The notes under the pieces were generated by a model that was not told the origin of the DNA, did not search any database, and saw nothing but the letters and a program-made list of their open reading frames with translations. A stretch of DNA of 64,000 bases, taken from a virus. Lineage: Duplodnaviria > Caudoviricetes. The stretch's first letter is position 1; each line of letters starts with the position of its first letter. Of the stretch, positions 9,785 to 63,993 are shown one piece after another. Both the position numbers and the translations under genes were made by a program. The stretch spans positions 1 through 64,000 of the IMG/VR virus record IMGVR_UViG_2830687482_000006. The stretch is one strand, 5' to 3'.

Positions 9785-10939
9785 TCATTTTCTGTCTCCA
9801 TAGTTAATAGTGACATCTTCGACCAACCAGTCTTGATGCCCCATACCATCATCTTTGAGTTGGATAACGTAGTCGAGGTCTTCAAGCATTTGATTAAATC
9901 TTTCGAATGTAACTGCGGCACCTCTACCAATATCTTTTTGATGGAAGGTATACTGATCATATAGGTCCCGGGCCATTGTAACTTCACCTTTTTTCCGAGC
10001 AATATTCTTATTACTGTCGAGAAAGGCTTTGACTGAGTTATTTATCCTTCGAAGCTGCTCCATTCTGAAATTATGGGATAAACTTTTGGTATAATCCCCT
10101 TGCTTACGTAGCCTCACCATACCCTCCAAAGCCCAAGCAGCAATAGCTTCCCGCTCATCCGCAACAATGCTTTCAGCAAGATTCTTAACTCTAAGATGCT
10201 CCGGAACGACATTACTAAAATCCCATATAAGCCAACGGCGGATGAAGCCCATCGAACTATCTTTACTGGTAGGCATAAAATTGGACCCGAACCAATGAGC
10301 CGCAATCGGACGATATAGAAATTTATCTCTACCCTTGTACTCGGTTTCCTGAGGAGACCCCTCAACCACCTGCTTAAAGATGTTGCCTGTGATCACTCCC
10401 GACTCTGGCAGTTCTGCACAGATATTAGCTACTTTCCCCACTAATCTGGTTTGAGCAAACTGTTTTCCCCATTCTTCAGGACTAAGCGATGATATAGCGT
10501 CGGGAGGTAGAAGAGACCTCAAAATATCTAATAATACTGTTTTACCAGTCCCGGCCTTACCTACAAATAGCAGTGCTCTTTGAAAGTCAGTCGCTACCCC
10601 AAATAGGGTAGCAGCGAATCCCTCTTGAAGTCCTTGAACTCTCTCCCGAAAATCAGGCTCATTACCCCAACAATCTCCTAAGAACTCAAAAAACCTATTG
10701 GCTCTAGAAGCCAATTCAGGCTTGTATTCAAATGGAAGAGTAAAGGTAGCACCATATTTTGGAGAGTGCTCATCAATCGACAAATCTTCGGAGACCCAAC
10801 CATTTGCAAAGTTAATACCGTTTTCCATTCTTTCGATCAGAGGTTTTCTACACATTCTCTCTAAGACTTTTGTTACGCTGGCGTAATCATTATGTCGTTG
10901 AACGAGTTTTGAACCTTTGATATTATTTGCAATTTGCAT
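9785..10939 (-). CDS. D5-like SF3 helicase (C-terminal part of primase-helicase)
   Basis: GKAGTGKT Walker A, ICAELP Walker B, GSNFMP motif C; in frame with the upstream primase across TGA 11018-11020. Confidence 0.9.
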   Translation of the reverse strand: MQIANNIKGSKLVQRHNDYASVTKVLERMCRKPLIERMENGINFANGWVSEDLSIDEHSPKYGATFTLPFEYKPELASRANRFFEFLGDCWGNEPDFRERVQGLQEGFAATLFGVATDFQRALLFVGKAGTGKTVLLDILRSLLPPDAISSLSPEEWGKQFAQTRLVGKVANICAELPESGVITGNIFKQVVEGSPQETEYKGRDKFLYRPIAAHWFGSNFMPTSKDSSMGFIRRWLIWDFSNVVPEHLRVKNLAESIVADEREAIAAWALEGMVRLRKQGDYTKSLSHNFRMEQLRRINNSVKAFLDSNKNIARKKGEVTMARDLYDQYTFHQKDIGRGAAVTFERFNQMLEDLDYVIQLKDDGMGHQDWLVEDVTINYGDRK

Positions 10940-11017
10940 ATAAATTTCTTCGTGGGGGACGTGCTTAAAGCATGATCCGTTCCACTGCCAAAATTTATCT
11001 TTATCAAATCTTATTTC

Positions 11018-12253
11018 TCAAATTCTTTCAATCTGCTCAAGAACAGCTCGGGCAATGGTTTCATGGTCTTCCCAATCTTCTCCTCCCTCAGCTTTTCTTT
11101 TAGCAGCTTTATAGCCTTGAAGAAGGTCTGCCTTCCCAAGTTTGAGATTATCGGAACTGGCAATTTTCTGAATGAAACCAAGCAAAGCTCTAAAGTCCAT
11201 TTCTGAAAATTTATCATCTTTAGCTACTAGAGATAATAATTCTTGGACCCTAGCCATAGCCCAATCGTCATCTCCCGGTTGCTCGGCCAATTTTCCCCGA
11301 AGCCAATCTCTAGCCTTTACTACTGTCCATCGTGACACCTGATTCTTTTCAGCAATCAGTTTAATTGATTCATTTGCAAGCCAGTGTTCAGTGAGATTTG
11401 CATCCCACCCTTCGGGTAAAGACTTTCCTTTTTCCAAGTCTTTGATCAAAAACTCGAAAAGTTTTGCTATCCCTTTGCCGGGGTCCATATTGTCCCCACT
11501 GGAAACAGTTGTGGTAAACTGGCGAACCCAATGAGTCATATGATCAATGGCTTCTTGTAGGGAGAATTGAGCGGCCTTATCCATGCCTAGAACAACTCTT
11601 GCAAGATAGCCTGCATGACGAATCATTTGAACATCACGTTCGCCCTCTGGAACGATATCTACGGGGCCGGAACGAGTTCCCTTTGCCACCGAGAAACCTC
11701 TAGCGTTAAGTAAGTCTCGTAACTGACTATCGATATCATCTGCCAAAGGTAGTATCTGATCGATAACCTCATAAAGATTAGTGTTTGCTTTATAAGGTTT
11801 CCCCGTATCTGGGTGAATAGAAGGTGGAACCACCATTTGGTTACCTAAGCCCAAAAATTCGCAAATCATTCCATCCTGATCACTGCGAAGTTTGAAGTTA
11901 CGCTGACCAGACCAACGATAAATCAGACCCATACCCTTGGCACCAATACGAACCCAAGGGGACTTAGGAAGAATATCAAGAATGGCTTTTACCAACTCTT
12001 CATTCTCAGTATCAATATCTATAGCACACAGACCAGAAGCTGACCCGAAAGGTAATCCAATATTACAGTCAGGATAACTGTTAAGCCAAGCCTGCTTTTC
12101 GGTATCAGTCGGCATGACTGAGCCAAATTTCGGCCAATCATTTAGTATCGGAGCTTTACCCCGACCTTTTTGATCCACATTATGTGGTTTCAAAGGAATC
12201 ACTGGTAGGCCTGCTGCCCAATACAGTGGTGCGTGTTCTGCAAAAATTGTCAT
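11018..12253 (-). CDS. bifunctional DNA primase/polymerase (Prim-Pol) domain (N-terminal part of primase-helicase)
   Basis: NIGLPFG...LCAIDID, GMGLIYRW, VVPPSIHPDTGKPY motifs. Confidence 0.9.
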   Translation of the reverse strand: MTIFAEHAPLYWAAGLPVIPLKPHNVDQKGRGKAPILNDWPKFGSVMPTDTEKQAWLNSYPDCNIGLPFGSASGLCAIDIDTENEELVKAILDILPKSPWVRIGAKGMGLIYRWSGQRNFKLRSDQDGMICEFLGLGNQMVVPPSIHPDTGKPYKANTNLYEVIDQILPLADDIDSQLRDLLNARGFSVAKGTRSGPVDIVPEGERDVQMIRHAGYLARVVLGMDKAAQFSLQEAIDHMTHWVRQFTTTVSSGDNMDPGKGIAKLFEFLIKDLEKGKSLPEGWDANLTEHWLANESIKLIAEKNQVSRWTVVKARDWLRGKLAEQPGDDDWAMARVQELLSLVAKDDKFSEMDFRALLGFIQKIASSDNLKLGKADLLQGYKAAKRKAEGGEDWEDHETIARAVLEQIERI

Positions 12254-60415: not shown

Positions 60416-61021
60416 TCAACTCTTCATTTCAGCCCACTTACCTTGTTCATCATAATCGAAAGTTTTTTTGAATGCTACACCAGATTTACGGTGAAACATA
60501 ACAATACCTTCTGGGTCCATGAAGCCGGGGGCGTGATAGCTTCCATTTTCCTTTAACATGGTCATTATGCCTTGAGCCGCACCATCCGGATTATTCAGAT
60601 ACTCATCTTGAATAAAAGTGTGAACAACCTCACAACATTGAGGACGATCTGGATTATCTTTCCAACGCAAGCTGTTGAAAAGTGCAAATCTTTTTTCTCC
60701 GCCAGTCAGCCCATAACCTCGCTTGATTCCAGAACCATACCACTCTCCGAAGTGTCGGCCTTCCCCTAGTTTGAAAAGCTCACTAACATTATGTGAAACA
60801 AATCGAGCAAAACCCATGTTATCCTTATCTAAGGATAACCAGCGGTTGCGCGAACCAGCAAATAGATAATAGCCCTCATGCTCTGTCAGAGCAGCTCCGG
60901 GTTCTGATTGATAATCAGCCTTAGGTCGCCAAGCAACCTGCGCATTAGTTCCATCAAGTTTTTCAGTTATCGTCCAACCCTGACTAAAACGAGTCAAACT
61001 AGAAAAGCGTTCAAAGTCCAT
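60416..61021 (-). CDS. RNA ligase (Rnl2-type adenylation domain)
   Basis: TEKLDGTNA motif I, FGEW, FALF, EGIVM, FKK. Confidence 0.85.
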   Translation of the reverse strand: MDFERFSSLTRFSQGWTITEKLDGTNAQVAWRPKADYQSEPGAALTEHEGYYLFAGSRNRWLSLDKDNMGFARFVSHNVSELFKLGEGRHFGEWYGSGIKRGYGLTGGEKRFALFNSLRWKDNPDRPQCCEVVHTFIQDEYLNNPDGAAQGIMTMLKENGSYHAPGFMDPEGIVMFHRKSGVAFKKTFDYDEQGKWAEMKS

Positions 61022-61235
61022 TGATAATCTCCATCAAGTCTATTGGGGTGTAATTGATTTGTTCCATGCTCACACAACGGTAGCGAGGGTCTGAATAATT
61101 TCCATAGAAGATTTCTCCTACTTTTGACTGTATCAATTTATCATGAGTATGCCCATGCACATTTAATTTCCATCTATTCATGGATTGAGGGTGAATAGGA
61201 ATATGAGACATGATCAACCCATGCTCCGGCTTCAC
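61011..61235 (-). pseudogene. truncated metallophosphoesterase (C-terminal half only)
   Basis: SHIPIH...NVHGHTH...CVSMEQINYTPI; N-terminal DxH/GD/GNH motifs absent; SD-linked ATG is out of frame. Confidence 0.65.
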
Positions 61236-61258
61236 GAGCCATATGTATCTCCTAAAAC

Positions 61259-61335
61259 TGGTTCCCCGCTCAGGCCTCGAACCTGTTTCTTGGGATTCAA
61301 AGTCCCAGATTTTAACCAAATTAAACTATCGGGGA
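61259..61335 (-). tRNA. tRNA-Gln(TTG)
   Basis: loop CTTTGAA, CCA. Confidence 0.88.
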
Positions 61336-61863: not shown

Positions 61864-61944
61864 TGGACCCCCAGACAGGATTCGAACCTGCATTTTCATC
61901 CAGTTATCCGTTTCTTGGTTCGTAGCCAAGGGGAATACTGAGGG
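61864..61944 (-). tRNA. D-armless tRNA-Arg(ACG)-like RNA
   Basis: 7-bp acceptor, CTTGG-CTACGAA-CCAAG anticodon arm, T arm, CCA; only 7 nt replace the D arm; 22-nt variable region. Confidence 0.8.
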
Positions 61945-61945
61945 A

Positions 61946-62020
61946 TGGTAGTCCGTGAGAATTATGCTATCCCGACCTTCCCCTTGTAAGGGGGACGCTC
62001 TACTTCTGAGCTAACGGACC
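61946..62020 (-). tRNA. tRNA-Val(TAC), non-canonical T loop
   Basis: loop CTTACAA; T-loop AGCATAA. Confidence 0.85.
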
Positions 62021-62988: not shown

Positions 62989-63066
62989 TGGTGCGCCTAG
63001 TAGGACTCGAACCTACAACCTACCGATTAGAAGTCGGCAACTCTATTCCAGTTGAGCTATAGGCGC
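62989..63066 (-). tRNA. tRNA-Arg(TCT)
   Basis: canonical cloverleaf, loop CTTCTAA. Confidence 0.95.
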
Positions 63067-63074
63067 AAAAACTA

Positions 63075-63315
63075 TGGCCCGTTCTGTTCCACGGTGGGCC
63101 AAGCCGGTGTCAAGAGCAGTTAAGCTGCGAGACGAAGTGCCATTTCTGGCTGGTTATCATTGACAGTTATCAATGTTGATCTTTTAAGGTAATCACACCT
63201 ACAACCTCACACTAGCTTATCCCGTCAGTCGATACCCTTTCACCCCCATTATGGTGGAGGTGGGCGCACTCGAAGCGCCGTCCTGTCCGTATTCACTAGT
63301 GGTCAGCGATTGTTC
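63075..63315 (-). ncRNA. ssrA: circularly permuted two-piece tmRNA
   Basis: T arm + CACCTCC-A-CCA (ends 63252), TAAT spacer, GGGGGTG 5' end (63247) with G3:U70; tag VNDNQPEMALRLAA* at 63120-63164; outer ends approximate. Confidence 0.92.
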
Positions 63316-63434
63316 CTCAAAACTTCCTGCATAAACTTCTTAAAGTCGGCATCACTTCCGGTTCCTTTGCCTAAATTAGCAGCGGTGCAAACAAATTGCA
63401 CATTTCCTTCTCCGCTGTCAACAGATAGTTTCAC
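63303..63434 (-). pseudogene. HNH-type endonuclease C-terminal remnant
   Basis: KLSVDSGEGNVQFVCTAANLGK resembles the SxDRID...GNVxxVCxxxNxxK tail of phage HNH proteins. Confidence 0.45.
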
Positions 63435-63993
63435 TCACCATATCCGTGAAGTTTAGATCAACCCCTAAAATCCACTTATGTGAAGGATACCTTGGAACCC
63501 AACGAGAAAACCTATGAACACTGCTAGCCAGCGCCAGTGGTGATTCTGATCTTATCAGGCGAAAAACCTTATCATCATGATCTTCCAAATAGCCCTTGCT
63601 TCTTTCCAAGTATTTTCCATTAAAAGAAATTTGACAAAGACCATAATCGAATCTCTGAGTTATATATTGAATACTCCAATTCACAAAAATTAGTTGGATT
63701 GGGGGAAGTCCTTCAACATCCATATTAGTCACTAATATAATTTCTCTCATAGATTCAGGATACCAAGCATCGGTATCATTTTGCTCAGGTTCTTTTCCCC
63801 CTAATAATTTGTTAAGGGCTGTAGCTTCACTTTCTGAGCCACAAGCTACAAAGAAATCTAAATCTTTTACATCTAGGCCATGATCTAAATCTCTTAAAGA
63901 CCCTCCAGCAAGAACTACTTTAGAATGAATAGTTTGAAACTTAAGTAGAAGATCGACCCATTCTTTTGGAATGTCTTTTTCGGTAATCATCAC
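63418..63993 (-). CDS. nucleotidyltransferase (CCA-adding/poly(A) polymerase head domain)
   Basis: LAGGSLRD...KDLDFF, RFDYGLCQI. Confidence 0.85.
   Translation of the reverse strand: MMITEKDIPKEWVDLLLKFQTIHSKVVLAGGSLRDLDHGLDVKDLDFFVACGSESEATALNKLLGGKEPEQNDTDAWYPESMREIILVTNMDVEGLPPIQLIFVNWSIQYITQRFDYGLCQISFNGKYLERSKGYLEDHDDKVFRLIRSESPLALASSVHRFSRWVPRYPSHKWILGVDLNFTDMVSETIC

Follow-up and report, generated by a model that had tools for sequence, protein, structure and literature searches.

A circularly permuted tmRNA gene with a valine resume codon in a Seuss-like siphophage

The tmRNA locus and the phage that carries it

We analysed a stretch of 64,000 nucleotides (the window), which comprises bases 1-64000 of a 75,082-bp contig, C559. 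The tmRNA gene of the window is on the minus strand, as are all other features for which window coordinates are given below. ARAGORN called a permuted tmRNA at 63029-63344 with the tag VNDNQPEMALRLAA*, and the Rfam model RF04321 (tmRNA_permuted; gathering cut-off of 47 bits) matched 63314-63120 over the full model (positions 1-213) with 100.7 bits and an E-value of 2e-18. The match of the window to a permuted tmRNA is far beyond chance, and the two programs together place the gene at about 63067-63330. A preliminary description of this DNA had read a phage-borne circularly permuted tmRNA at 63075-63315 and had proposed ARAGORN as a check; the coordinates fit, all the elements it had listed lie where it had placed them, and the permuted call by ARAGORN is in agreement with RF04321.

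The CCA (63254-63252) precedes the GGGGGUG (63247-63241) in the order of the gene, i.e. the acceptor piece comes first. The acceptor piece (63252..63314, from the RF04321 alignment and the sequence) includes GAC, the T-arm, the 3' strand of the acceptor stem and the encoded ACCA; its 5' boundary is approximate, and ARAGORN carries the 5' side to 63344. The RF04321 alignment also assigns to this piece the 5' strands of the inter-piece helices (ACAA 63313-63310, CACU 63301-63298, CG 63289-63288 and CAG 63285-63283). These are followed by the T-arm GGCGC-UUCGAGU-GCGCC (63279-63263; stem 63279-63275 and 63267-63263, loop 63274-63268), which has a canonical T-loop, the acceptor 3' strand CACCUCC (63262-63256), the discriminator A (63255) and the encoded CCA. 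A spacer of only 4 nt, UAAU (63251-63248), separates the CCA from the first G of the coding piece.

The coding piece (63067..63247) begins with the acceptor 5' strand GGGGGUG, and contains AAAGGGUAUCGA, AUCGAC (63233-63228), the 3' strands of the inter-piece helices as aligned to RF04321 (CUG 63228-63226, CG 63224-63223, AGUG 63213-63210 and UUGU 63204-63201) and a hairpin AGGU-GUGAUU-ACCU (63200-63187). The frame-setting UAA-CU (UAA 63169-63167) then leads into GUC (Val; 63164-63162), with which the tag frame VNDNQPEMALRLAA opens; ARAGORN and the sequence give it 14 codons and a UAA stop (63120..63164; stop 63122-63120). The piece ends with a 3' hairpin GGCCC-(ACCGUGGAACAGAAC)-GGGCC (63076..63100), the loop motif of which, AACAGAA, is nearly invariant across 10 viral homologues, and with a U-rich 3' tail AUAGUUUUU (63075-63067). 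The acceptor stem GGGGGUG/CACCUCC has seven pairs, including the G3-U70 that specifies alanine identity, and this wobble is kept in two sister phages described below (G003 and L243). The tag has a hydrophobic end of the Ala-Ala type (the LAA degron type), and the appended peptide is expected to be (A)VNDNQPEMALRLAA. As judged from its sequence, the window tmRNA has all the parts needed for alanine charging and tagging, and the sequence and pairing requirements of a two-piece tmRNA are all there.

The tRNA-Arg(UCU) gene (62989..63066; ARAGORN and Rfam) starts one base past the tmRNA tail, and opens a tRNA block extending to 59680. C559 has at least 12 tRNAs by ARAGORN and up to 14 matches by Rfam. 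Two tRNA matches (61867-61944 and 61949-62020; 29.5 and 47.3 bits) were seen by Rfam and missed by ARAGORN, suggesting that the block holds non-standard tRNAs. A small nucleotidyltransferase of 191 aa (63418..63993; GGSLRD...DLD; phrog_1614, E 2e-15; no Pfam match) is encoded directly upstream of the tmRNA, is syntenic in G003, and may be a small CCA-adding or repair enzyme. Inside the tRNA block, an RNA ligase (phrog_548; PF09414 at 26.6 bits, just below the cut-off) and an overlapping 102-aa phosphoesterase-like frame (phrog_547), together at 60416-61319, suggest an RNA-repair function. The 4.4 kb around the tmRNA thus contain a nucleotidyltransferase, an RNA ligase, a phosphoesterase fragment and tRNAs.

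C559 encodes the large terminase, portal, major capsid, a 1765-aa tape measure and a J-like tail protein, along with a family A DNA polymerase, ribonucleotide reductase, helicase and SbcC. By terminase and capsid its nearest cultured relatives are Caulobacter phage Seuss (capsid 50% identical), Achromobacter phages JWF and 2-1, Pseudoalteromonas phage KB12-38 and Xylophilus phage Lumi. This gene set and these relatives make C559 a Seuss-like siphophage. When 24 kb of the window were compared by megablast with 50,697 phage records, no match was obtained, and blastn of the tmRNA region matched only the neighbouring tRNA-Arg.

The same locus was found in two sisters of this phage. G003 (IMG/VR, UViG_3300025126_000016; 74 kb; capsid 74% identical) has its genes in the same order as C559, one for one, and its permuted tmRNA occupies the same position, immediately past the nucleotidyltransferase homologue. 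With DNA ligase, the next conserved gene, as the query we found the third sister, L243 (ligase 69% identical), which carries a permuted tmRNA (RF04321, 74.6 bits) at the same locus. No permuted tmRNA was found in the cultured relatives Seuss, JWF, KB12-38, Lumi and EAb13 (78-85 kb), and the gene is also absent from more distant complete IMG/VR relatives of 81-82 kb. The presence of the tmRNA in three sisters and its absence from the farther relatives indicate that it entered the sub-lineage once, and has been inherited since. Elsewhere in the window, adjacent frames of 384 and 411 aa (9785-12253) both match one 820-aa protein of G003 at 74-76% identity, which indicates that the primase-helicase gene is split, or read through, in the window phage.

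C559 was binned with a cyanobacterium (4.35 Mb in 580 contigs, with 11 phycobilisome-protein matches). The bin has a one-piece tmRNA of its own (contig C37; RF00023, 138.8 bits; tag ANNIVPFARKTVLATA), and smpB is found only on another bin contig (C49) and is absent from the phage contig. C559 is the longest contig of the bin, and its GC content of 42.3% is under the first percentile (bin mean 48.8%). It had no match at E 0.01 to the other 579 contigs (blastn-short), and shared no CRISPR spacer or tRNA with them; no terminal repeat was found on C559. Given the outlying GC content and the lack of shared sequence, the binning is the only tie to the cyanobacterium, and C559 comes either from a cyanophage that was binned along with this genome or from a phage of another host that was binned in error. 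If the bin is the true host, a proteobacterial-style two-piece tmRNA would be working beside the one-piece tmRNA of the host. The binning with a cyanobacterial genome would also be expected of a chromosomal island or prophage, in which case the tmRNA would be a second host copy. We regard this as extremely improbable, because the GC content departs from the bin mean, nothing in the sequence links C559 to the other bin contigs, the contig has a full set of phage structural and replication genes with no host genes at the contig ends within the window, and it is collinear with free viral contigs of 74-82 kb, some of which have terminal repeats.

Conservation of the RNA and of its parts

We compared the window tmRNA with that of L243. 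The two genes align end to end, and paired positions change jointly: at acceptor pair 2-71 the window has G-C where L243 has U-A, the T-stem pairs are swapped at four of five positions, and the hairpin 3' of the inter-piece helices is AGGU/ACCU in one and AGGC/GCCU in the other. The stem of the 3' hairpin differs in L243 yet still pairs, while the loop keeps AACAGAAC. In an RNAalifold analysis of 10 viral homologues, 9 of the 17 pairs showed double changes; these lie in the T-stem (four of five pairs) and in one inter-piece helix. The compensatory changes, both relative to L243 and among the 10 viral homologues, point to a functional RNA under selection.

The minimum-free-energy cofold of the two pieces recovered the acceptor stem, but not the inter-piece helices of the Rfam model; these are based on the alignment to the model and on the covariation in one helix. 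A second stem for the first pseudoknot (UGAU/AUCA) is possible in the window, though by eye L243 has no equivalent of it and covariation gave it no support. We found no clear match to a sigma-70 promoter just upstream of the window tmRNA; G003 has TTGACA-17-TATATG just upstream of its own.

From these comparisons we conclude that the window tmRNA is probably functional. We consider it likely that the locus is a working two-piece tmRNA gene, long kept in a Seuss-like siphophage lineage. The gene could alternatively be a decaying relic that has lost processing or charging, as the lack of a strong promoter match and the score of 100.7 bits with RF04321, against 113-162 bits for sampled bacterial genes, might suggest. 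Such decay is, however, very improbable, given that every functional element is intact and that the changes relative to L243 and the other homologues are compensatory. Moreover, the acceptor end that seems to have truly decayed in G003 looks quite different, having UUUCAGU-CAAU instead of CACCUAC-ACCA.

The tmRNA of G003 (locus L037, 1458-1828) has an acceptor piece of the alpha type, with the T-loop GGCAGUA and a CGCCUCC that pairs with GGGGGCG. This piece is followed by an 88-nt intervening segment that contains GGAC, a T-arm-like hairpin GCAGG-UUCAAUU-CCUGC and UUUCAGU-CAAU-CUGAU, after which the coding piece begins. The 7+4+5 geometry at the end of the segment is that of the live sequence of L243, CACCUAC-ACCA-GUUAU. 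G003 thus appears to have acquired another acceptor piece, leaving the earlier one to degenerate in situ. This reading of the segment is based on the GGAC, the T-arm motif and the geometry shared with L243 rather than on sequence similarity: local alignment of the window acceptor piece with the segment scored 10, compared with a shuffle mean of 12.4. The sister phages thus give a hint that either piece of a permuted tmRNA gene can be exchanged independently of the other.

The 4-nt spacer of the window gene is short but not new. Spacers of 3-5 nt are present in four viral loci, L243 among them, and spacers of 3-4 nt in about 33 bacterial species with beta-type genes of the Accumulibacter type (e.g. 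CCA-CUAC-GGGGGUG). A pattern search revealed no other permuted tmRNA gene in those Accumulibacter-type bacteria, and a 3-4-nt spacer is for this reason compatible with processing. In the remaining Rhodocyclales genes of the set, the spacer is about 20-30 nt long.

Resume codon, tag and proposed role

We analysed the position at which translation would resume on the window tmRNA. UAA lies at positions -5 to -3 relative to GUC, and UAR occupies the same place ahead of the first tag codon in about 8-9 other permuted tmRNAs compared (the tmRNA of Pelagibacter phage HTVC008M is without it); the A at -4 is kept in L243. The GUC is collinear, without gaps, with GCA in both sisters, L243 (tag ANDNSQETALRIAA) and G003 (tag ANDNDMPVMKMAIAA), and the RF04321 consensus UGCa AAC GAu AAc aligns gap-free to UGUC AAU GAU AAC of the window. 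The UAA spacing, the Rfam consensus and the GCA of the sisters thus identify GUC as the resume codon by positional homology.

Resumption could instead take place at the next codon, AAU, giving the tag (A)NDNQPEMALRLAA and making the GUC resume codon an artefact of annotation. In E. coli tmRNA a GUC is found at -3 to -1, directly 5' of the GCA resume codon, and one viral tmRNA reads UAAAU-GUC-GCA-AAU, where the GUC looks like an extra codon ahead of an ordinary GCA. A start at AAU would leave the frame as it is, but the A at -4 would be lost. Moreover, it is from GUC that the UAA has the spacing common to eight of the nine tmRNAs compared (HTVC008M being the exception), and it is GUC that is collinear with the GCA of L243 and G003 and with the Rfam consensus. 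We consider resumption at AAU improbable, and take GUC as the resume codon.

The preliminary description had called this resume codon unusual. The codon is indeed at the resume position, and all 28 of the 28 sampled two-piece genes of Pseudomonadota have GCN there. Its use is nevertheless not without precedent, as the native resume codon of Helicobacter pylori tmRNA is GUA (Val), and E. coli tmRNA with GUA or GUC as the resume codon is still functional (PMC2862035). GUC with the same upstream spacing is also found in two other viral tag families, namely in four loci with VANDNDIVDFALAA-type tags and in two loci with VNLKADNDNFAPVALAA-type tags. Judging from the aligned sequences, the valine resume codon of the window appears to be a derived and tolerated change in its own lineage. 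Because two sister phages keep GCA, this is a clean natural change of the resume codon from Ala to Val.

The tags of the three sisters align residue for residue (V/A-NDN-..-E-.-ALR-L/I-AA), and all three keep a C-terminal degron, LAA or IAA. The LAA-type end that had been proposed for the window tag is borne out, as VNDNQPEMALRLAA* ends in LAA.

The arrangement of the locus is consistent with the following scheme. Transcription of the minus strand would start from the upstream nucleotidyltransferase gene, or from an unrecognised promoter, and would continue into tRNA-Arg. RNase P would cut before G63247 and before tRNA-Arg, the latter cut also freeing the 3' end of the tmRNA, and exonucleases would trim the UAAU, exposing the CCA. 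The two pieces would be held together by the acceptor stem and about 13 further pairs (ACAA/UUGU, CACU/AGUG, CG/CG and CAG/CUG). The host AlaRS would charge the RNA, and host SmpB and EF-Tu would deliver it to stalled ribosomes, the phage having no smpB; compatibility with these host factors is assumed here. Translation would then resume at GUC, adding (A)VNDNQPEMALRLAA, so that tagged proteins would carry AVNDNQPEMALRLAA, and the LAA end would direct them to proteases of the ClpXP type.

Together with the phage tRNAs, the RNA ligase and the nucleotidyltransferase, the tmRNA may provide extra ribosome rescue in infection, during breakdown of host mRNA or tRNA. The neighbourhood fits a kit that keeps translation going amid RNA damage or degradation in infection, a role that we infer from the gene context. 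More generally, phage tmRNAs show that viruses bring ribosome-rescue capacity along with tRNAs and RNA-repair enzymes.

The phage tmRNA might, alternatively, serve to alter what becomes of rescued proteins, or act as a competitor of the host tmRNA, instead of only adding rescue capacity. With valine at position 2 and a different middle, its tag may be missed by host adaptors, and the tagged proteins may be degraded at a different rate; tags are highly diverse in this group of viral tmRNAs. If the bin is the host, the host tag ANNIVPFARKTVLATA is unrelated to that of the phage. Selective tagging was raised as a possible role by Buchholz et al. (PMC9004378), and a coding-less phage tmRNA (DS6A) was reported to inhibit the host tmRNA (PMC11915505). 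The conservation of the LAA/IAA degron in three sisters, however, suggests ordinary degradation, and we regard an altered fate or competition as rather unlikely compared with plain rescue capacity.

Lineage of the tmRNA and comparison with known systems

We analysed the relation of the window tmRNA to the lineage-specific Rfam models. The best of these was beta_tmRNA (RF01850) with 58.5 bits, which is below its cut-off of 84. The alpha model (RF01849) was not listed at gathering (50 bits), scoring at most 58.5 bits and ranking behind beta_tmRNA; the cyano model (RF01851) was likewise not listed at gathering, and its score was below that of beta. The sisters differ: G003 passes the alpha model with 100.6 bits, while L243 fails it, and reaches neither the alpha nor the beta threshold.

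The build of the window gene (canonical T-loop, CACCUCCACCA, spacer of up to 30 nt and GGGGGUGAA) occurs in 13 viral and 24 metagenome contigs, and in none of 185,579 species-representative genomes. The viral carriers of this build share almost no genes with the window phage. The exact junction pattern of the window had no match in viral contigs, and a pattern specific to the window and L048, another viral locus, had none in metagenome contigs. L048 itself has a permuted tmRNA at 11140-11437 on the minus strand (RF04321, 78.3 bits; alpha_tmRNA, 65.4 bits; no call by ARAGORN). Its T-arm GGCGU-UUCGAAU-ACGCC is the closest to that of the window, and it has UAG-AU-GUC and the tag VNLKADNDNFAPVALAA.

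The gene had been proposed to be a captured host ssrA. A recent capture is contradicted by the presence of the gene at the same locus in three sisters, and by the absence of its build from all 185,579 species genomes. It is possible, although doubtful, that the gene belongs to a tmRNA lineage that is maintained by phages and not copied from hosts, is mosaic, evolves by module swaps, and has repeatedly drifted from an Ala to a Val (GUC) resume codon. The mosaic would then combine a T-arm of canonical form with a very short spacer and with a tag and a 3' loop that are both alpha-like; GUC is seen in three tag families.

The preliminary description had also taken the tmRNA to identify the host class, a view that does not hold. 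The tmRNA of the OM43 phage Melnitz is of a type that disagrees with the class of its host (PMC9004378), the cultured relatives of C559 have hosts among the alpha-, beta- and gammaproteobacteria, and C559 itself was binned with a cyanobacterium whose own tmRNA is one-piece. Given this precedent, the varied hosts of the relatives, the cyanobacterial bin and the mixed lineage features of the gene itself, the host class is not inferable from the tmRNA. The case is a warning that neither the form nor the tag of a phage tmRNA identifies the class of the host.

Among bacterial genes, the alpha type (RF01849; Caulobacter ssrA) resembles the window in its tag (x-NDN...EMAL..LAA in the window; compare ANDNEMALAA and ANDNYAEARLAA in sampled Alphaproteobacteria), in the ACC..AACAGAA of the 3' hairpin loop and in having the acceptor piece first. 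It differs in the T-loop, which is GGCRGUA (GGC[AG]G[TA][AG] type) in all 26 sampled genes and UUCGAGU in the window, in the spacer (16-49 nt, measured in 21 of the 26, versus 4 nt) and in the GCN resume codon versus GUC. A search of 401 sampled Alphaproteobacteria for two-piece genes with the canonical T-loop found no true tmRNA; of its 14 pattern matches, the three inspected were tRNA genes, and the rest have the same tRNA-type 3' ends. The attribution of the two-piece form to Alphaproteobacteria, as first suggested, is therefore in line with the tag and the 3' loop, but at odds with the canonical T-loop, with beta as the best model and with the empty search of the 401 genomes.

The beta-type genes of Rhodocyclales (RF01850; at least 119 species) share with the window the canonical kind of T-loop, and their acceptor stem is likewise GGGGGUG/CACCUCC; in some members of the Accumulibacter type, a spacer of 3-4 nt comes after an encoded CCA. 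In contrast to VNDNQPEMALRLAA of the window, however, their tag is a near-invariant ANDERFA[LVIM]AA, and the bases after the acceptor strand are different (GUA, not GAA). The cyanobacterial two-piece tmRNA (RF01851) has an ANNIV-type tag, and the window tag is not of this type. H. pylori tmRNA shares the valine resume codon, with a tag that starts (A)V-N, but is one-piece, bacterial and not phage-borne, with an unrelated KAA tag end.

Phage-borne two-piece tmRNAs have been described before: Buchholz et al. (2022) reported 53 two-piece calls by ARAGORN in 18,146 phage genomes (INPHARED), mostly aquatic (PMC9004378), and the 2025 tmRNA database holds 79 phage sequences. The window gene resembles the known phage two-piece tmRNAs in GGGGGUG/CACCUCC, the encoded CCA and a tag of the A/V-N-x-N...LAA type. 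With HTVC008M, for which we confirmed a permuted tmRNA (RF04321, 90.6 bits; tag ANFNEYALAA), and with Melnitz, it has in common that a permuted tmRNA is borne by a tailed phage of lytic type. The tmRNA of HTVC008M differs in its alpha-like T-loop UGCAAUA, its 50-nt intervening segment and its GCA resume codon; Melnitz has a glutamine riboswitch, whereas Rfam found none in the window. HTVC008M and Melnitz are myophages, and the window phage is a Seuss-like siphophage, so that its gene adds a siphophage lineage to the carriers of phage tmRNA. What sets the window gene apart is that it joins a canonical T-arm to a spacer of 4 nt and to an alpha-like tag that starts with valine; each of these features has a precedent in the systems compared here.
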